Shown: piece after piece, positions 2,941 to 42,968 of the stretch
Layout of the letters: the number at the start of each line of letters is the position of its first letter
How positions within the stretch are numbered: position 1 is the first letter of the stretch
Assembly (NCBI GenBank): GCA_022560735.1
Contig: JADFSO010000008.1
Span: 10,691 to 74,690 of the forward strand
Length of the DNA: 64,000 bases
Origin: Pseudomonadota bacterium
GTDB taxonomy: Bacteria; Pseudomonadota; Gammaproteobacteria; Steroidobacterales; MnTg04
Reading direction: 5' to 3'
The notes under the pieces: generated by a model
Databases searched by the model: none
Told to the model about the DNA's origin: nothing
Seen by the model: the letters and a program-made list of their open reading frames with translations, nothing else
Program-made: the position numbers and the translations under genes

Positions 2941-3490
2941 CGATATCGAAAAAAGCGCAGGGACACGGATGGGCAAGAGCGTCGACGCGTTTGTCCAGGA
3001 ACTGAAAAAGCTCAGGACCGGACGCGCGCACACGAGCCTGCTGGAACACATTACCGTCGACTATTACGGAGCGCAGGTGCCGCTCAACCAGGTTGCCAGC
3101 ATCACGGTCGAGGATGCGCGCACGCTGGCCGTAAACCCATGGGAGAAACCCATGATCCAGGTCGTCGAAAAAGCCATCATGACCGCGGACCTGGGTTTGA
3201 ACCCGACCACCGCGGGCACCGTGATTCGAGTCCCGCTACCGCCGCTGACCGAAGAAAGACGCAAGGACATGACCCGGGTGGTGCGGCACGAGGCGGAGAA
3301 CGCGCGGGTCGCGGTACGCAATATTCGCCGCGACGCCCTGCATGACGTCAAGGAGCTGCTCAAGGAAAAAACGATCACCGAAGACGACGATCATCGCGCG
3401 CACGACGAGGTGCAGAAGCTGACCGACGATCATGTTGCCAGGATCGACAAGATCCTCGCGGAAAAAGAAGCAGAGTTGCTGGAGGTATAA
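2933..3490 (+). CDS. frr: Ribosome recycling factor
   Basis: [31 protein letters not shown] start after AGGAGG gives 185 aa. Confidence 0.97.
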
Positions 3491-3528: not shown

Positions 3529-4317
3529 GTGAACCGTATCCGACTAGTCACGATGGCGGACCAGGCAGACAAGACCAGCCAGCAGCAGGACACCATGGCT
3601 GCCCGGCATATTGCGATCGTCATGGATGGCAATGGCCGCTGGGCGAAGCAACGCATGTTGCCCCGGCACGCGGGTCACCGGGCCGGTGTCAAGGCAGTGC
3701 GGCGCACCGTCGAGGCCTGCGTTGAACTGGGAATCCGTACCCTGACACTGTTCGCGTTTAGCAGCGAAAACTGGGGCAGACCCACGGAAGAAGTACAAAA
3801 ACTGATGACCTTGTTTGTCGAGGCCCTGAACAAACAGGTACCGGAGTTGAATGAGCAGGGGGTCAGGCTCACGATCATCGGCGACCGCGAGCAGTTGCCC
3901 GCCGACCTGGTCCGGCAGATAGAGGCATCGGAAGCGATGACCGCAGGCAACGAGCGCTTGCACCTGGTCATCGCGGTCGCCTACGGGGGTCGCTGGGATA
4001 TCGTCAACGCATGCAAAGGCCTGGCACGACAGGTTGCCGATGGCGAGCTGGCGGTCGAGGAGATAGACGAAAATCGCCTGGCGGCCCGGATACAGCTTGC
4101 CGGCCCTGGCGATCCGGATCTGTTTATTCGAACCGGCGGCGATTCCCGAATCAGCAATTTCCTGCTGTGGAACCTGGCTTATACGGAGCTGCATTTCAGC
4201 GACACGCTGTGGCCTGATTTTGAGCAGCAGGAACTGGCGGCCGTGGTTGGCGGTTTTCAAGGGCGGGAACGGCGGTTTGGCAAAACATCGGCGCAGGTGA
4301 CCGGCGATCATGCTTAG
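3529..4317 (+). CDS. uppS: Undecaprenyl diphosphate synthase
   Basis: HIAIVMDGNGRWA, FAFSSENWGRP, DLFIRTGGDSRISNFLLW. Start may instead be ATG 3553. Confidence 0.96.
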   Translation: MNRIRLVTMADQADKTSQQQDTMAARHIAIVMDGNGRWAKQRMLPRHAGHRAGVKAVRRTVEACVELGIRTLTLFAFSSENWGRPTEEVQKLMTLFVEALNKQVPELNEQGVRLTIIGDREQLPADLVRQIEASEAMTAGNERLHLVIAVAYGGRWDIVNACKGLARQVADGELAVEEIDENRLAARIQLAGPGDPDLFIRTGGDSRISNFLLWNLAYTELHFSDTLWPDFEQQELAAVVGGFQGRERRFGKTSAQVTGDHA

Positions 4318-7669: not shown

Positions 7670-10051
7670 ATGACTGGAAGAATCGGGATATTTCTGGCGC
7701 TGGCCATTCTTGTGCTCGGACAGGCTGCCGCCCAGGAGGAAGGTTTCCTGGTGCGTGACATGCGGATCGATGGCAACCAGCGGATAACCGATGGCACCAT
7801 ATTTAATTACCTGCCGGTCAAAATCGGTGACGTCATCGATCGGCAACGGGTACAGGAAGCCATCCGTGCCTTGTACGAAACCAAGTTTTTTGATGATGTA
7901 GAGCTCAGGACCGTTGACGGCATGTTGCTGATCGTGGTCGTCGAAAGGCCATCCATCGAAAGTTTCACTATCTCCGGCAACAAGAGCATCAAGACCGAGG
8001 ACATGGAGGCCGAATTAAGCCGTATAGGACTGGCCGAGGGCAAGACCTTCGACCGGTCGGTCCTCGAAGGCGTGACCAATGCGATTACCGAGCAGTATTT
8101 CAGCCAGGGCAAATACAGCGCGACGGTGACCACAACGGTCTCCACTGTCGGCAAGAACCGGGTGCAAATCGATATCGTCGTCGTCGAGGGCGAACGGGCG
8201 ACGATTCGCCAGATCAATATCGTCGGCAACCATATATATTCCGATAAGGAGCTGCGCAAGGAGATGTCTTTGCGGCAACCTCACCTGACCTGCTTCCTGA
8301 AGGGCGATTGCCGGTACTCGAAGGAATCCCTGCTTGGGGACCTGGAGGCGCTGAGTTCGTTTTACCTGGATCGCGGTCATCTCAATTTCCAGGTCCGCTC
8401 GACGCAGGTTGCGATTTCGCCTGACCGCAAGGATATCTTCCTGACCATCAACATCGATGAAGGAGACCTGTACAAGGTGTCCGGTGTGAAGCTGTCCGGC
8501 AAGACCATCCTGGCGCCCGAGGTTCTGCGGCAGCTGATCGTTTTGCAGGAAGGAGACACGTACTCACAAAGACGGATTAACCAAAGCACGGAAATGATGG
8601 CCTACGCCCTCGGCGAGCGCGGCTATTCGCTGGCCGACATCGAACCTATTCCCGATGTCAACATCGAAGAAAAAACGGTCAGCCTGACTTTCTATGTGAA
8701 GCCCGGCAACAGGGTTTATGTCAGGAGAATCAAGTTCGCCGGCACCCACGCAACCGACGACTACGTGTTTCGTCGTGAGATGAGACAAATGGAGCAGGCG
8801 TGGTTGTCAAACTCGGGCATAGAGCGGTCCAGGCAGCGAATCCAGAGGTTGCCTTTCGTCGCGAGCGTCGAAATGGAAACCATCCCCGTACCGGGGGTCG
8901 CCGACATGGTGGATATCGAATACACCATCAAGGAAGGCTTGCCCGGATCGTTCGGCGGCGGGGTCGGATTTTCGGATGCCCAGGGGCTGATCCTGAACGG
9001 AAATTTTGTGCATACGAATTTTATGGGGACCGGTAACCGGATTTCCATGGATTTGTCATCCGGCAGGTTCAGCAAGATTTACAGTCTTTCCCATACCAAT
9101 CCGTATGCGACCCCGGACGGAATTCGCAGAACCGTTTCCGTCGGACTGCGCGATTTCAATCAGTTTACCTCCGGCGCTTCCGCTTTCAATACCCAGACGA
9201 CCAGCGCCTCGATCGATTATGGAATTCCGATCAGCGAGTTTCAGGAATTCAGATTGGGCTTTTCGGCCAGCGATTCGGAATTGTCATCGAACAGCTTCCA
9301 GACCCGGCAGTCCCAGGAATGGGTGCAAAACAACGGCAATTCATTGGTCGAAACCATCAATGGCATTACTTTCTCCAAAACGGCTTTCAAGACATTTGAG
9401 CTGTTGCTTGGCTGGTCCTATGACTCGCGCAATCGCTTTTTGTTTGCCGACCGTGGGTCACGCATCCGGGTGTCTGGCAGTTATGCCACGCCGATAAGCG
9501 ATGTAGAGTATTGGTTCCTGAATGTCGATTACCAGAAATTTATTCCGATCTCAGGCGAGTGGGTGTTCAGTATCAAATCGGAAATCGGACTCGGCGAGGC
9601 GCTTGGCGATACGACGTCTATTCCTCCATTTCGGAATTTCTTCTCCGGCGGTCCAAACACGGTTCGTGGCTACAAGGAAAACAGGCTCGGACCAAAAGAC
9701 TCTTTTGGCAATCCCTATGGAGGTAACTTGAAAGTGGCTTCCCAGTTCGAATTGCTGGTACCGGTGCCGGAGGCCATGAAGGGATCTGCAAGGATGAGTG
9801 TTTTCTATGATGTCGGTAATGTATTCTCTACCGGTGACGTGAGTTTTTTCGACAAGCTTGGCGACCCGATCTCCTATCAATGGGACGCCACCCGTTTGAA
9901 GCATTCATATGGGGTGGCGGTCGAGTGGCTGGCTCCGATTGGTCTTTTCAAGTTTAGTTATGCGTTCCCGCTGAACCCGGAAAAGGAGACGCTGCGTTTC
10001 TTTGGCGATAAGACCGAACGACTGCAATTTTCTATTGGTTCCGCTTTTTAG
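7670..10051 (+). CDS. bamA: Outer membrane protein assembly factor BamA
   Basis: Signal peptide, POTRA-like repeats, VRGY motif, C-terminal Phe (FSIGSAF); position between rseP and skp. Confidence 0.96.
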   Translation: MTGRIGIFLALAILVLGQAAAQEEGFLVRDMRIDGNQRITDGTIFNYLPVKIGDVIDRQRVQEAIRALYETKFFDDVELRTVDGMLLIVVVERPSIESFTISGNKSIKTEDMEAELSRIGLAEGKTFDRSVLEGVTNAITEQYFSQGKYSATVTTTVSTVGKNRVQIDIVVVEGERATIRQINIVGNHIYSDKELRKEMSLRQPHLTCFLKGDCRYSKESLLGDLEALSSFYLDRGHLNFQVRSTQVAISPDRKDIFLTINIDEGDLYKVSGVKLSGKTILAPEVLRQLIVLQEGDTYSQRRINQSTEMMAYALGERGYSLADIEPIPDVNIEEKTVSLTFYVKPGNRVYVRRIKFAGTHATDDYVFRREMRQMEQAWLSNSGIERSRQRIQRLPFVASVEMETIPVPGVADMVDIEYTIKEGLPGSFGGGVGFSDAQGLILNGNFVHTNFMGTGNRISMDLSSGRFSKIYSLSHTNPYATPDGIRRTVSVGLRDFNQFTSGASAFNTQTTSASIDYGIPISEFQEFRLGFSASDSELSSNSFQTRQSQEWVQNNGNSLVETINGITFSKTAFKTFELLLGWSYDSRNRFLFADRGSRIRVSGSYATPISDVEYWFLNVDYQKFIPISGEWVFSIKSEIGLGEALGDTTSIPPFRNFFSGGPNTVRGYKENRLGPKDSFGNPYGGNLKVASQFELLVPVPEAMKGSARMSVFYDVGNVFSTGDVSFFDKLGDPISYQWDATRLKHSYGVAVEWLAPIGLFKFSYAFPLNPEKETLRFFGDKTERLQFSIGSAF

Positions 10052-26297: not shown

Positions 26298-27056
26298 ATG
26301 CTGGAACAGATTGAGCACGACGATATTCGGGAAATCCGCCTGGCGCGGCCGCCGGTCAATGCGATCGATGCGCCGATGATGCTGGCGATTCACGCCGCGC
26401 TGCAGAAAGCAGCCGATGACGAGGTGTCGGGAGTCGTACTGTCCGGGCGTCCGGGCTTGTTTTCGGCGGGGCTCGACATTCCATCCCTGTTGCAGCTGGA
26501 GCGGGACGAGATCGCGGAATTCTGGCGGAGTTTTTTTCGCGTTCTGCAAACGCTGGCGGCTTTTCCGGCACCGGTTTTTGCGGCGATCGGCGGCCACAAC
26601 CCGGCGGGTGGTACGGTATTAGCGATTTTCTGCGACCGGCGCATCGCCGCCAGGGGCGATTTTCGCATGGGGCTCAATGAGGTGGCGGTCGGGCTGGCCC
26701 TGCCGCGGTTGATTTTTTATGCCTATCGTTTGCTGCTCGGTCAGCGGGAGGCGGAAAGGCTGGCGGTGGTCGGCGAAATGATCAGCTCCGCCGATGCGCT
26801 CGCCTGCGGGCTGGTCGATGAGCTCGTCGAACCCGACGACGTGGTGACGACCGCGCTCGACAGGTTGCGCGGGGTGCTCGGTGTACCCAGGCGCGCGATG
26901 CTGGTCACTCGCCGGATCGCCCGGCAGCCGTTGATGGATATTTTCGATCAGCTGGACGAGGGCATGGTCGAGGCGATCACCGATGGCTGGTTCAGCGAGG
27001 AAACCCAGGCGGTCCTTGGTCAGCTGGTCGAGTCGCTGGCCAGTAAAAAAGCGTAG
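26298..27056 (+). CDS. Crotonase-family enoyl-CoA isomerase/hydratase (ECI1-like delta3-delta2 isomerase type)
   Basis: RPPVNAID, FSAGLD, GHNPAGGTVLAIFCDRRI, MGLNEVAVGL; AGGAG RBS. Subfamily assignment from recalled motif similarity. Confidence 0.85.
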   Translation: MLEQIEHDDIREIRLARPPVNAIDAPMMLAIHAALQKAADDEVSGVVLSGRPGLFSAGLDIPSLLQLERDEIAEFWRSFFRVLQTLAAFPAPVFAAIGGHNPAGGTVLAIFCDRRIAARGDFRMGLNEVAVGLALPRLIFYAYRLLLGQREAERLAVVGEMISSADALACGLVDELVEPDDVVTTALDRLRGVLGVPRRAMLVTRRIARQPLMDIFDQLDEGMVEAITDGWFSEETQAVLGQLVESLASKKA

Positions 27057-27069
27057 GCTGCGGTCGCGT

Positions 27070-27347
27070 TGAGATTGGGGCGTCGCGGGCCACTGTTTTA
27101 CTCACTGCTAGATGAACTTCGTTCCGAATCGAGCTGTGAGTAAAACAGCGTCCCGCGACAATGCTGGGAGATCGCGGCGCAGCCAATCGTGACGCTTCGA
27201 GTGGCGATGGTGGTATTGGGGACTGTGGTTGGCATGAAATTGGCGTTTTGCGGGCCACTGGTTTAGCCACTGCCAGATGAACTGCGTTCCGAATCGAGCT
27301 GTGACTAAACCAGCGTCCCGCAAAACAATGCTGGGAGATCGTGGTCC
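27070..27347. repeat. Tandem array 1 of a ~165-bp structured non-coding repeat (copy A 27070-27234, partial copy B 27235-27347)
   Basis: Period 165 bp (TGAGATTGG at 27070, TGAAATTGG at 27235). Each copy contains an inverted repeat around TGCYAGATGAACTKCGTTCCGAATCGAGCT. Homologous to 36603-36915. Confidence 0.95.
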
Positions 27348-27371
27348 AGCTGACCTTGACAGGTCGGTTGG

Positions 27372-27899
27372 TTATTTCAGCAGTACATAAACTGCGCCGC
27401 TGCCGCCGTGGGCCGGCAGCGTCGTGACATAGGCAAGCACTTCGGTCCGGTGGCGCAGGTAACTGCCAACCAGCGGTTTGATCACCGGGCCGGCGGGGCC
27501 GGAGCCGAGTCCCTTGCCGTGGACGACGCGCACGCAGCGCGAACCCGTGGCGAGGCTTTCGTCGATAAATTCCACCAGCAGGTGTTTCGCCTGCTCGGCG
27601 TTGAGCCCGTGCAAATCGCATTCGTTTTCGATCGCGTACTGGCCACGGCGCAGTTTGCGCATGACTTTGGCCGGCAAGCCGGGGCGGGCATAGATCATTT
27701 CCTCGCCGCTCTGTATCTCGCCGGGCAGCGGTGAATCGCTGAGGCTCTGGCGCATGACTTCTGCGTTGTCGCGGCTCGTGAACCTGGCCGTCGCCCTGGG
27801 TTTTGCTGCATCGAGTTCGGCACGCGGCTGGCCCGTCAATTGACGTACATCCTGCATCGCTTTGCGAAACCGGGATTTTTCGTCGTCATGTGTGCTCAT
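27372..27899 (-). CDS. Stand-alone Smr domain protein (SmrA/YdaL-like)
   Basis: CDLHGLNA, VVHGKGLGS, GGSGAVYVLLK. Start set at ATG 27899. Confidence 0.9.
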   Translation of the reverse strand: MSTHDDEKSRFRKAMQDVRQLTGQPRAELDAAKPRATARFTSRDNAEVMRQSLSDSPLPGEIQSGEEMIYARPGLPAKVMRKLRRGQYAIENECDLHGLNAEQAKHLLVEFIDESLATGSRCVRVVHGKGLGSGPAGPVIKPLVGSYLRHRTEVLAYVTTLPAHGGSGAVYVLLK

Positions 27900-35106: not shown

Positions 35107-36600
35107 GTGAAACAGATGACGGAAGAAAACGAACACGAGCTGATCGCCGAGAGACGGCGAAAGTTACAACGACTGCGGGAGCACGGCCCCGCCTATCCGA
35201 ATGATTTTCGCCGCGATGCACTGGCCGGCGAGTTGCACGCAAAGTATGGCGAACACGACGATAAGAAACTGAAGCAGGCAAATATTGAAGTCGCCGTTGC
35301 CGGTCGCATGATGGCAAAACGCGTCATGGGCAAGGTCTCTTTTGCCAAGCTGCAGGACCGCAGCGGCCAGATCCAGATATTTCTCACCGGCGATGAATTG
35401 CCGGATGGCGTCTACCAGGATTTCAAGAGCTGGGATCTCGGCGATATAGTCGCGGCCCGCGGATCTTTGTTCAGGACCAGGACCGGCGAACTCAGCGTGC
35501 GGGCGGTCGAGTGCCGCATACTCGGAAAATGTTTGCGCCCCTTGCCGGAGAAATTTCATGGCCTGCAGGATCAGGAGACGCGCTATCGTCAGCGTTATCT
35601 CGACCTGGTCATGAACCCCGGCTCCCGGCAGGTCTTCCAGGCGCGCACCCGGGTGGTCTCCCATATTCGCAATTTTCTCGATAGCCGGGATTTCATGGAG
35701 GTCGAGACGCCGATGATGCAATCGATCCCCGGTGGGGCGGTCGCGCGTCCGTTTATCACCCACCACAACGCACTCGATATGGAGCTGTATCTGCGGATCG
35801 CACCCGAGCTTTATCTGAAAAGGCTGGTCGTCGGCGGCTTCGAGCGGGTATACGAGGTCAATCGCAATTTCCGCAACGAGGGGCTTTCGACGCAGCACAA
35901 CCCGGAATTTACGATGCTCGAGCTGTACCAGGCCTATGCCGATTGGGAAGACATCATGGCGCTGACCGAGTCGCTGATACACAGTCTCGTCGATGCCCTG
36001 CATGGCCAGGAGGAGATCAGTTACCAGGGCGAGTCCATCGGGATGGGCAAGCCGTTCCGGCGCATCAGCGTGGAGCAGGCGGTGATCGGCGAGAATCCGT
36101 TGCTCGAATCGAAGACCCGCGACCGCGATGCCCTGGCGGCGCGTTGCGTGGAGCTTGGTCTGGTCGTCGACGATGCGGCGGGCGCCGGCAAGCTGCTGTT
36201 TGATATTTTCGACAAAACCGTTGAAGACAAACTGCGACAACCTACATTTGTGACTTCATATCCGGCGGAAGTCTCTCCTTTGTCACGCTGCGACGATAAC
36301 GATCCGTTTCTCACGGATCGTTTCGAGTTGTTTATTGCCGGGCGCGAGATCGCCAACGGTTTTTCCGAACTCAACGATCCGGAGGAGCAGGCGGCGAGAT
36401 TCAAGGCGCAGGTTGCACTCAAGGACGCCGGTGACCACGAGGCGATGTTCTATGACCATGACTATATCCGTGCGCTTGAGGTTGGCATGCCGCCGACCGG
36501 GGGTCTTGGCATCGGCATCGACCGGCTGGTCATGCTGTTGACCGATTCCGCATCGATTCGCGATGTCGTGTTGTTTCCGCACATGCGGCCGGAGTTTTAG
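35107..36600 (+). CDS. lysS: Lysyl-tRNA synthetase (class II)
   Basis: [52 protein letters not shown]. Alternative start ATG 35116. Confidence 0.98.
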
Positions 36601-36602
36601 CC

Positions 36603-36915
36603 GGCCGCCGGTTTAGCCACTGCTAGATGAACTTCGTTCCGAATCGAGCTGTGACTAAACCGGCGTCCCACAAAACAATGCTGTGAGATCGCGGCCCCGG
36701 CAAATGTGACGCTTCGATGGGTGATGGTGGTATTTGGACTGTGGTTGGCATGAGATTGGGGTTTTGCGGGCCGCCGGTTTAGCCACTGCTAGATGAACTT
36801 CGTTCCGAATCGAGCTGTGACTAAACCGGCGTCCCACAAAACAATGCTGTGAGATCGCGGCCCTGGCAAATGTGACGCTTCGATGGGTGATGGTGGTATT
36901 TGGACTGTGGTTGGC
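36603..36915. repeat. Tandem array 2 of the ~166-bp structured non-coding repeat
   Basis: 36603-36749 and 36769-36915 are identical over 147 bp except one C/T; period 166 bp; same hairpin and apex as 27070-27347. Confidence 0.97.
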
Positions 36916-36935
36916 CAGCCGCTGTTTTACTGACT

Positions 36936-37841
36936 CTAGCCTGGGACTGGATAAGGCAGATCGAGGGGGCTTAGCGGTGTGCCGTCGATGTTTAGATCCG
37001 CCTGTCGTTGATCGTGTCGGATGACTGCGAGGTATTCCCAGGCGGGCTGGTCGCCGCCGGGGCATTTCTGGCGGTTCAGTATTTCGCCGACTTTCTTGCC
37101 GTTCGCAACATTGACTTCGTCGCCGGTGATTTCGGTTTCGCTGCCGAGGCGGCACAGGCGGCGTTTTATTTTTCCGAGGTTCTGGGTGCGGGCGATAATT
37201 TCCTGGCCGGCATAACAGCCCTTGCTGAAACTGATTGCGCCGATCAGGTCGAGGTTCAGCATTTGCGCGGTATAACGTGCCTGGTTGGCGGTGGTCACTC
37301 GCGGTATGCCGGCGCGGATATCCGCCAGGCGCCACTGGGTTTCCGGCTGCTCGGTCAGGGCGTCGTTCAGCAGTTGCCAGTCGGCGCTGTCCGGTGGCCC
37401 GCAGGCAAGAATCCGTTGCCCGTTGTAAGCGGCGAGCAGCAGTCCGCCGGCGGTGCGGGTCACGCAACCGGGTTGCGGTATCGGCAGGGCCGGCAGCGCG
37501 GCGGCGAGATTCGCTCCGCCCAGACCGCACAAGCCGTTAGCGATGCTGAACTCCACCTTGGCGCGCAACACGTATCGCGACAAGCGGTCGCGGATATCCT
37601 GGACTATCTCGCTCGGCAGGATCAGGCTGGCCTCGTTTCCTTGCAGCAGGACCAGGGCCAGCGCGAGTACCCGGCCGTCTGGCTGGTGATAAGCGGACCA
37701 CTGGCAGCGGGTGTCATCCAGCGCATGCATATCGTTGCTGAGCTGGCCTTGCAGAAAGCTGACGGTATCGGCGCCGGCGATCGTCAGGACGCTGGTTCCG
37801 GGCAGATTGGCGCGCCAGTTTTTATTGATTTTCCCATTCAT
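36936..37841 (-). CDS. ygfZ: Folate-binding Fe-S maturation protein YgfZ
   Basis: GADTVSFLQGQLSND, AQMLNLD, ISFSKGCYAGQEIIARTQNLGKIKRRL. Confidence 0.94.
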   Translation of the reverse strand: MNGKINKNWRANLPGTSVLTIAGADTVSFLQGQLSNDMHALDDTRCQWSAYHQPDGRVLALALVLLQGNEASLILPSEIVQDIRDRLSRYVLRAKVEFSIANGLCGLGGANLAAALPALPIPQPGCVTRTAGGLLLAAYNGQRILACGPPDSADWQLLNDALTEQPETQWRLADIRAGIPRVTTANQARYTAQMLNLDLIGAISFSKGCYAGQEIIARTQNLGKIKRRLCRLGSETEITGDEVNVANGKKVGEILNRQKCPGGDQPAWEYLAVIRHDQRQADLNIDGTPLSPLDLPYPVPG

Positions 37842-37940
37842 CGATTGTCGATCCCTGATCCTGAACGAGCCAACCATATCATGCTACTGACGAGCCATTT
37901 GCAGGGTGCAAACAATTTGGCTTTCTGGCAAAATCCGGGT

Positions 37941-42392: not shown

Positions 42393-42968
42393 ATGAGTGA
42401 GCGCCAGGTGGACCAGAAACTGGTCGTCAAGGTTCAACAAGGCGACAAGACGGCATTCGATGTGCTGGTGCTCAAGTACCAGCACAAGGTGATCAAGGTG
42501 ATCATGCGTTATATCCGCGATCCTTCCGAGGCGCTGGATGTGGCGCAGGAAGCTTTTTTGAAGGCGTACCGTGCCATACCGAGGTTTCGAGGCGACAGCG
42601 CTTTCTACACCTGGTTGTACCGGATCGCGATCAACACCGCCAAGAACCACCTGGTGGCCGCGAGAAGGAGACCGCTGGATTACGATCTGGACCCGCAGGA
42701 TCCGGACCAATATGACATGCAGGGCCGTTTGAGTGACGGCGATACGCCCGAACACCTGGTGCTTAGCGAGGAAATCAGGGACACCGTCAACCGGGCGATA
42801 CAACATTTGCCGGAGGATCTTCGCACGGCGATTATCCTCCGCGAAATGGAAGGAATGAGTTACGAGGAGATCGCACAAACCATGGAGTGCCCGGTGGGCA
42901 CGGTGCGATCGAGGATATTCAGGGCCCGGGAGGCGATCGACAAGAAGCTCAGGCCTTTGCTGGATTGA
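42393..42968 (+). CDS. rpoE: ECF sigma factor RpoE
   Basis: MSERQVDQKLV, AFDVLVLKYQHKV, FRGDSAFYTWLYRIAINTAKN, GTVRSRIFRAREAI; 191 aa. Confidence 0.97.
   Translation: MSERQVDQKLVVKVQQGDKTAFDVLVLKYQHKVIKVIMRYIRDPSEALDVAQEAFLKAYRAIPRFRGDSAFYTWLYRIAINTAKNHLVAARRRPLDYDLDPQDPDQYDMQGRLSDGDTPEHLVLSEEIRDTVNRAIQHLPEDLRTAIILREMEGMSYEEIAQTMECPVGTVRSRIFRAREAIDKKLRPLLD

Follow-up and report, generated by a model that had tools for sequence, protein, structure and literature searches.

A previously undescribed family of intergenic hairpin repeats, tentatively of the REPIN kind, in an uncultured marine gammaproteobacterial clade

What is the long imperfect hairpin that occupies the gap between an enoyl-CoA hydratase-family (ECH) gene and a convergent Smr-domain gene, is its fold under selection, and on which strand is it read? 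The window analyzed here, that is, the whole stretch of 64,000 nucleotides, shows that the sequence in question belongs to an intergenic repeat family that had not been described before: the region 27082–27326 comprises two (A and B) of the four copies of a repeat of about 166 nt found in these 64 kb, and all known copies are extragenic. Much is known about interspersed hairpin repeats in enterics and pseudomonads, but very little about those of the abundant, uncultured JTB255/Woeseiaceae group of marine sediments, and the present family adds a new member to a known class of bacterial repeats, from a marine lineage that has received little study. Clean covariation, fixed irregularities, measurable strand asymmetry and the occurrence of 0, 1 or 2 copies in near-identical strains make it a convenient natural case for asking whether such hairpins act as single-stranded DNA (ssDNA) or as RNA, and which protein reads them.

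Repeat units, linkers and arrays

The repeats of the window and the genes that flank them are the following.

26298–27056, plus strand: ECH gene (Pfam ECH_1)
27058–27222, plus strand: repeat unit A, consisting of a truncated left linker, hairpin and full linker (direct-repeat families D3/D4, alignment A1)
27082–27159, minus strand: hairpin A, arms 27082–27113 and 27128–27159 (inverted repeat I3, 32-nt arms, 88% complementary), with the invariant apex block at 27103–27138, the triloop at 27118–27120 (TTC on plus, GAA on minus) and a 3-nt bulge at 27125–27127
27223–27390, plus strand: repeat unit B, with a diverged right-hand linker that reaches into the stop codon of the Smr-domain gene (Pfam Smr)
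27245–27326, minus strand: hairpin B, triloop 27283–27285 (TGC on plus, GCA on minus)
27346–27371, plus strand: small secondary hairpin in the diverged right linker of unit B, followed by TTATTTC and abutting the Smr stop codon
27372–28079, minus strand: Smr-domain gene (Pfam Smr)
35107–36600, plus strand: lysS
36573–36738, plus strand: repeat unit C, without left linker, its outer stem overlapping the last codons and the stop codon of lysS
36595–36676, minus strand: hairpin C (inverted repeat I7; 92.5 bits with covariance model R1 on the minus strand)
36739–36905, plus strand: repeat unit D, consisting of a full linker, hairpin and linker, 98% identical to unit C (family D2, alignment A1)
36761–36842, minus strand: hairpin D (inverted repeat I1, 34-nt arms, 85% complementary)
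36906–36935, plus strand: terminal remnant, a partial A-type left arm (GCCGCTGTTTTACTGAC), the array ending directly at the stop codon of the 313-aa gene
36936–37877, minus strand: gene for a 313-aa protein downstream of lysS

Units A and B form a head-to-tail doublet, and C and D form a second one. Unit A begins immediately past the stop codon of the ECH gene; unit B is found, with the same right junction, in contigs L024–L026, and the terminal remnant next to unit D has an orthologous counterpart in L005, L009, L016 and L023. The product of the 313-aa gene has no Pfam match and contains KGCYAGQE, which we take to be the YgfZ motif. The 26-mer core of the repeat occurs four times in the window compared with none in 100 shuffles, and the folding z-scores of the window hairpins range from −5.8 to −9.4. 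With DNA parameters, hairpin A folds at −31.7 kcal/mol (z −9.4) on the minus strand versus −29.4 (z −7.7) on the plus strand, hairpin B at −29.7 versus −24.9, and hairpin D at −32.2 versus −27.9. Covariance model R1, which was built from the minus-strand alignment A3, scores hairpin B at 104.8 bits on the minus strand and at 51.3 bits on the plus strand.

The preliminary description of the locus recognized the hairpin, which indeed is one part of the unit, but missed the conserved linker, the tandem arrays and the polymorphism among strains. The complete unit consists of an imperfect hairpin of about 80 nt and a G/T-rich linker of 65–85 nt; alignment of units together with their flanks places the linker on both sides of every hairpin, so that the arrays have the form linker-(hairpin-linker)n, where n is 1 or 2 and the period is 144–166 nt. 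There is a long subfamily of 166–169 nt (the window, L009, L015, L016 and L023–26) and a short one of about 144 nt (MnTg04, L008 and L010–L014). The linker, with the consensus ...TTGATGCTTCGATGGGCGATGGTGGTATTTGGATTGGGG...GATTGG, contains GNTGGTGG, and its plus strand is 39–44% G and 9–18% C over 66–93 nt; hence the minus-strand linker, which is predicted to be unpaired, is C-rich (39–44%) and G-poor (9–18%). The apex, as read from the sequence, holds two overlapping palindromes, GAAC-N3-GTTC and TTCG-N3-CGAA.

Several more familiar identities were considered for the unit and rejected. The hairpins are flanked by 5' GTTTTG and 3' CAAAAC on both strands, and the stem lacks a trailing T run; with scans blank at all four hairpins, an intrinsic terminator was discarded. 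The scans, which on the promoter side covered the sigma-70 type, detected neither a sigma-70-like promoter nor an intrinsic terminator in the units, which rules against an array of independent small RNA genes and implies that any transcript must come from read-through. A small ORF in the unit (an ATG...TAG frame in copy D) was dropped because the frame is not conserved among relatives. Rfam produced zero matches at gathering score over the 64 kb and, in E-value mode, only miRNA-model noise of at most 23 bits against cut-offs of 60–93; given that no covariance model came near its gathering score, membership in an Rfam family, including tandem-hairpin motifs such as STAXI, was rejected. The secondary hairpin at 27346–27371 is terminator-like on the plus strand and is the sole terminator-like site there, the count of such sites not exceeding the shuffle expectation.

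At the second doublet, the array extends into a coding sequence. The lysS frame ends within the outer stem of hairpin C, which contributes its final sense codon together with the stop (window 36589–36600), and the LysS protein ends in PEF* in the window versus PES* in relatives; the repeat has thus rewritten the C-terminal residue of an essential gene.

Other repetitive sequence in the window is unrelated to the family or of another type. The only other sizeable short-loop inverted repeat, at 42804–42848 (21-nt arms, 81% complementary, 3-nt loop), is unrelated to it. The first ORF (3–1115), which reads like ribosomal protein S2 (presumably its identity, recognized from the sequence), is extended at its C terminus by about 200 aa that abound in K, E, A and P and are made up of 14-aa tandem repeats, and a tandem 42-nt repeat lies within this ORF at 678–957.

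Covariation, fixed irregularities and strand polarity of the stem

The arms that the preliminary description reported for three copies are correct: 27082–27105 pairs with 27136–27159 at 22 of 24 positions in copy A, 27245–27270 with 27301–27326 at 23 of 26 in copy B, and 36761–36786 with 36817–36842 at 23 of 26 in copy D. Likewise, the sequence confirms three double substitutions that preserve inner-stem pairing, as well as the outer-stem switch from GTC/GAC to TTTT/AAAA. Its claim that the stem is under compensatory selection gains further support from a wider set of 22–24 copies from the window and related contigs, with pair statistics taken from a 24-copy minus-strand alignment and irregularities from 22 copies. 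Across the 24 copies, 94.7% of the stem cells are paired and 13 of the 35 stem pairs show double-sided changes, compared with 5.7±1.5 in shuffles, none of 500 of which reaches 13; these shuffles ignore the relatedness among the copies. When the registers are slid by 1–3 columns, a control that preserves relatedness, five or fewer double-change pairs are obtained. The variable pairs are located in the A/T-rich middle of the stem (TTT/AAA, TAT/ATA, TAA/TTA, ATT/AAT and TTTT/AAAA) and at its base.

The departures from regular pairing are as conspicuous as the pairing itself. The C-T mismatch that had been described as kept in every copy is present in 20 of the 22, and three further irregularities, namely, a TxT mismatch, an AxG mismatch and a 3-nt CGA bulge, are present in all 22; several of these rules are violated in L028, which is a diverged copy. 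The apex, described as nearly invariant, is a 36-nt block in which just two positions vary, one being the central triloop base, and it stays near-invariant between genomes whose LysS differs by 8%. The earlier reading of the loop as GNA on the minus strand also stands: the plus strand reads TTC in 15 copies and TGC in 7, that is, GAA or GCA on the minus strand, with only N varying. Templated correction of a palindrome would erase mismatches; that they are retained is a sign that one particular irregular fold is being selected, a pattern known for protein-recognized hairpins.

For the proposed minus-strand polarity, two kinds of evidence agree, the asymmetry of wobbles and the greater stability of the minus strand, although the wobble positions are few and the cells share ancestry. 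Among the 22 copies, the non-Watson-Crick cells of the stem are mostly C-A or A-C on the plus strand, which on the minus strand become G·T(U) pairs (27 cells at 7 positions), compared with 3 cells at 2 positions for plus-strand G-T wobbles; other inner-stem mismatches account for about 5 cells. Counted by position alone, 7 versus 2 gives a one-sided binomial value of about 0.09, and common descent links many of the cells. By DNA parameters, the minus strand is the more stable one in all 24 copies, by 2.6 kcal/mol on average, and by RNA parameters, in 20 of 24, by an average of 3.7 kcal/mol. The functional form may be ssDNA or RNA, the sequence being compatible with both.

The orientation of the element relative to replication can be gauged from the composition of the window. 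All 4-kb bins of the window have a positive GC skew (+0.01 to +0.11), and of the 54 ORFs selected with a crude filter on codon composition, about 43 are encoded on the plus strand; the window is therefore part of a single replichore, and plus is its leading strand. Because G outnumbers C on the plus strand throughout the window, a replication-linked C-to-T bias would yield plus-strand wobbles and, by this reasoning, can be set aside as a simple cause of the asymmetry. At six of six loci, the G/T-rich (plus) strand of the element coincides with the G-rich (leading) strand of the contig, the single exception being the inverted copy in L010. Enzymes of the IS200/IS605 type (IS608) use the strand on the lagging-strand template; judging from GC skew, it is the plus strand of the element, not the better-folding minus strand, that would reside on that template, which weighs weakly against a link to HUH/RAYT enzymes.

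Distribution, genomic context and turnover among strains

Searches with LysS and ECH assign the window to an uncultured gammaproteobacterial clade in which LysS is about 70% identical to that of Woeseiaceae MAGs, and these searches also yielded orthologous loci. In a scan for the exact core, with one genome per species, 'Bacterium MnTg04' was the only source of genuine copies; this JTB255/Woeseiaceae MAG, recovered from a ferromanganese crust of the abyss, comprises 1.73 Mb in 244 contigs (PMC6839870). The MnTg04 copies occupy four loci, each with a tandem doublet of a period of about 144 nt, so the MAG contains 8 exact-core copies in 1.73 Mb and 244 contigs, a figure to be read with the fact that short-read assemblies break or collapse at repeats; in the MAGs of this clade, the repeat is a source of assembly breaks and, at the same time, a practical strain marker. 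The exact-core matches in L001, L004 and L006 were rejected as chance matches in other sequence, those in L001 and L004 reading like the histidine-kinase GTTFRIEL motif. A metagenome scan contributed eight further contigs. There was no DNA similarity to viral contigs or to plasmid or phage records. Covariance model R1 detected no further diverged copies in 203 kb and, over an additional 36 kb, detected only the L028 copy.

The family is carried by six or more intergenic loci, and five of the six distinct loci lie between convergent genes, the array often touching both stop codons. The gene arrangements around the element, given in the direction of the element itself and with genes other than lysS and its 313-aa neighbor named from Pfam matches, are as follows.

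ECH gene → element ← Smr-domain gene
lysS → element ← 313-aa gene
secF → element ← inositol-monophosphatase family gene
Ser/Thr kinase-cNMP gene → element ← folE2
dnaE → element ← T2SS-F gene
ettA-like ABC-F gene ← element → histone-deacetylase-family gene (L007/L015; divergent, the end of the element lying about 50 nt before the start codon)

In L017 (8398–8460), a relative without the repeat, the gap downstream of lysS accommodates a hairpin that is unrelated to the family, nearly perfect and about 20 bp long (GCCTGCACATTTCACCCAGGATC / GATCCTTGGTGAAATATGCAGGC); it may be that convergent gaps in this clade are usually filled by long hairpins.

The gap next to lysS contains the element in all compared genomes with LysS at least 91.5% identical (91.5–100%; the window, L016, L023, L005 and L009) and lacks it where LysS identity is 74–89% (L017–L021), the genes there abutting or overlapping; this distribution fits one ancient gain. 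The number of units at this site nevertheless differs between close relatives, two C/D-type units being present in the window and one in L016 and L023, where LysS is 99.6% identical. Furthermore, the lysS-gap hairpin of L016/L023 is identical to hairpin A, which in the window occupies the ECH-Smr gap, and such identity of hairpins at different loci shows that conversion or copying occurs.

Turnover is also evident at the ECH-Smr gap. Contigs with identical ECH proteins contain either no unit (L023 and L027) or one B-type unit (L024–L026), and the window, whose ECH is 98% identical to theirs, contains two. In the filled site of L024–L026, a 198-nt segment replaces the 6-nt GCAAAC of the empty site in L023 and L027, and comparison of the two revealed no flanking direct repeats, that is, no target-site duplication. 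More distant relatives include L029 and L030 (ECH identity 78%), with an empty gap; L010 (87%), with a canonical unit in the opposite orientation; and L028 (85%), with a decayed copy that scores 34 bits versus about 100 for canonical copies, has the minus-strand loop TAA and pairs one of the conserved mismatches.

The ends of the arrays are ragged and differ among loci, with no defined termini. In L011 (about 3050–3100, minus strand of the locus), a complete unit is followed by a long-type unit without the hairpin interior (GATTGGCG|GCCCGCGAC TATGCTGAGAGA), which looks like the footprint of hairpin excision or slippage. Between the orthologous array ends in L013 (about 9150–9200) and L003 (about 4040–4090), the difference is a linker segment of 45 nt with the direct repeats TCGAAGGGC and TCGAAAGGC at its borders, suggesting, as far as the sequences go, deletion by microhomology. 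Taken together, the gain, loss, duplication, conversion and decay of copies are the behavior of a REP/REPIN-like repeat rather than that of a fixed RNA gene.

Candidate explanations and known systems

Which process maintains such a family? The copies combine covariation, conserved irregularities, strand asymmetry and a modular tandem architecture with spread over multiple loci in one clade, and are polymorphic in presence, number, orientation and state of decay. The explanation that we tentatively prefer, and rate just short of probable, is a lineage-specific interspersed repeat of the REP/REPIN kind, in which the hairpin, folded in a single strand, is recognized by a trans-acting protein. Under this scenario, the imperfect hairpin of about 80 nt would be the form read by a structure-specific protein, with the invariant apex, the three fixed 1x1 mismatches, the 3-nt bulge and the minus-strand GNA triloop as the likely recognition features; copies that retain these features would be copied, converted between loci and tandemly duplicated, those no longer refreshed would decay or be deleted, and selection would operate at the level of the element. 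The dedicated protein, ssDNA as the nucleic acid that it reads, and enzymatic spread beyond that achieved by recombination alone are what we infer from these patterns.

There are close precedents in REP biology. The REPs of Escherichia coli have a conserved bulge required by TnpA-REP, such that a regular stem abolishes activity, and the enzyme recognizes the folded single strand in a strand-specific manner and needs a GTAG guide (PMC8266576). REPINs are inverted doublets that form a long hairpin, show frequent compensatory changes and occur in tandem clusters of about two units that include the flanks (PMC3116915). The present family shares with REPIN/REP-BIME and RAYT systems the extragenic location, the long hairpin formed by inverted arms, the frequent compensatory changes and the copy turnover within a clade, as well as the tandem clusters of about two units including flanks (PMC3116915) and the importance of conserved stem irregularities (PMC8266576). 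Conserved mismatches argue against blind palindrome correction and fit recognition by a protein, and the dispersal of the family over at least six unrelated loci in related genomes is also in line with this scheme.

The family also differs from REPINs. REPs are 20–40 nt long, imperfectly palindromic and preceded by GTAG, whereas the arms of the present hairpin, judging from their sequence, are not self-complementary and are not REP-like palindromes; the most conserved part here is the apex, whereas in REPINs it is the base of the hairpin; copy number appears low, with 8 exact-core copies in a fragmented 1.73-Mb MAG, whereas REP families count tens to hundreds of extragenic copies per genome; and a G/T-rich linker of 65–85 nt is part of the unit. 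GTAG is absent from all four window copies, the corresponding position reading TGAG or TGAA, and occurs only in part of the short-type relative copies, 12–13 nt upstream of the stem; being confined to some short-type copies and displaced from the stem, it was rejected as a REP signature. REP/REPIN systems include a cognate RAYT (Y1 HUH) gene in the genome, as a rule with repeats on its flanks; a tblastn search with E. coli RayT over 227 kb of sequence gave nothing below E=3, and the precomputed Pfam annotations of L016–L030 include no Y1 transposase. The lack of an enzyme among these hits, the missing GTAG, the non-REP arms and the conserved apex thus count against the REP/REPIN reading, as do the apparent low copy number, the ragged ends, the single-gain pattern at lysS and the minus-strand orientation; several of these points also count against the candidate link to HUH/RAYT enzymes.

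Other mobile or recombining hairpins resemble the family in part. ERIC/IRU, Correia/NEMIS and MITE-like repeats are, similarly, imperfect palindromes of 80–130 nt that are transcribed, intergenic, mostly located at the 3' ends of genes and polymorphic among strains, but the present units form head-to-tail arrays with shared linkers and have neither defined termini nor target-site duplications; the filled and empty sites, lacking target duplication and fixed ends, led us to reject a DDE-type MITE, an element that has fixed ends with terminal inverted repeats inside a target-site duplication. The subterminal hairpins of IS200/IS605 elements and of the ORF-less PATEs are imperfect hairpins read by a transposase on one strand, with no target duplication. 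Here, in contrast, there is one type of hairpin rather than distinct left and right ends, the neighboring genes at the examined loci include no tnpA or tnpB, and it is the less stable plus strand that, by GC skew, occupies the presumed lagging-strand template. Integron attC sites, too, are imperfect hairpins read as a folded single strand, with extrahelical or mismatched bases setting the choice of strand. The attC consensus R''/R' at the stem base is RYYYAAC...GTTRRRY, and attC sites occur in cassette arrays beside intI. The stem base of the present element, 5'-GTTTTG...CAAAAC-3', reverses this arrangement, and attC was rejected for this wrong polarity; the spacing of 144–166 nt, conserved linkers in place of cassettes and dispersal among housekeeping genes are further differences.

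The patterns on which the REP/REPIN reading relies could, in principle, arise with no selection on the fold, through templated correction of quasi-palindromes combined with gene conversion among a few young copies. The close relatedness of the copies (88–91% mean column identity), the identical hairpins at different loci and the neglect of relatedness in the shuffle controls are all compatible with this possibility. We consider it quite unlikely, however, because the three mismatches and the bulge are kept in 20–22 of the 22 copies though correction should erase mismatches, the uncorrected transitions are mostly on the wobble side of one strand, the slid registers, in which relatedness is kept, yield at most 5 double-change pairs versus 13, and the 36-nt apex, with its two variable positions, is near-invariant across 8% LysS divergence. 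A more serious competitor, possible but less likely than the REP/REPIN reading, is a module that acts at the 3' ends of RNAs: in read-through transcripts, a minus-strand linker resembling a Rho-loading (rut) site would precede a very stable hairpin, at which transcription would halt or pause and which would shield the 3' end. The minus-strand RNA would derive from the lagging-strand gene of each convergent pair, with the plus-strand hairpin located at or just past the upstream stop codon. The location of five of the six distinct loci between convergent genes, with arrays that often abut both stop codons, is what such a module would call for. So are the composition of the minus-strand linker (C 39–44%, G 9–18% over 66–93 nt, predicted unpaired), which resembles that of rut sites, C-rich, G-poor and unstructured tracts of about 70 nt or more, the tolerance of the minus strand to G·U-compatible changes with an RNA fold better by 3.7 kcal/mol on average, and the persistence of the element at the lysS gap across 91.5–100% LysS identity. 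REP-type mRNA 3'-end stabilizers and Rho-dependent terminators provide the parallel, with a stable hairpin past stop codons preceded on one strand by a C-rich unstructured tract, but the candidate element differs from them in being dispensable between strains and inverted at one orthologous site. Indeed, strains with an identical ECH gene have 0 or 1 unit, L010 has the element reversed between the same two genes, the genes that flank the L007/L015 locus diverge, with a start codon about 50 nt downstream of the element, and the L028 copy has decayed in place, all of which speaks against the RNA module.

A role of the double-stranded element for the host, as a protein-binding or topological site in duplex or cruciform form or as a linker-borne recombination signal co-oriented with replication, would likewise account for some of the observations, and we assign it a low probability. 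BIMEs bind gyrase and IHF, and a comparable function might be read into the position of the G/T-rich strand on the leading strand at six of six distinct loci (with one inverted exception), into the overlapping apex palindromes, a candidate dimer-binding site, and into the presence of GNTGGTGG in the linker. For a purely duplex site, pairing-preserving covariation and strand-asymmetric wobbles are unexpected, and the polymorphism among strains speaks against an essential role. Still further possibilities, which we regard as improbable, are that the repeat is not a RAYT substrate and that either the folded minus strand is the substrate of a new structure-specific protein, for which the apex, GNA triloop and mismatches would be the code, or the element is a mobile, polar module of Rho-dependent termination and 3'-end formation. 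In the latter variant, the element, co-oriented with replication, would cap the transcripts of head-on (lagging-strand) genes before they enter convergent essential genes (lysS, secF and dnaE).

A Chi-like role of GNTGGTGG in the linker was rejected because, in 194 kb of clade sequence, the octamer is neither enriched nor skewed outside the element (GCTGGTGG, 14 versus 9; GATGGTGG, 3 versus 2). The most strand-skewed frequent octamer in the same 194 kb, oriented by GC skew, is GCTGGCGG, with 56 occurrences on the G-rich strand versus 16; its skew could be codon-driven, or else this octamer could be a candidate Chi-like signal of the lineage.
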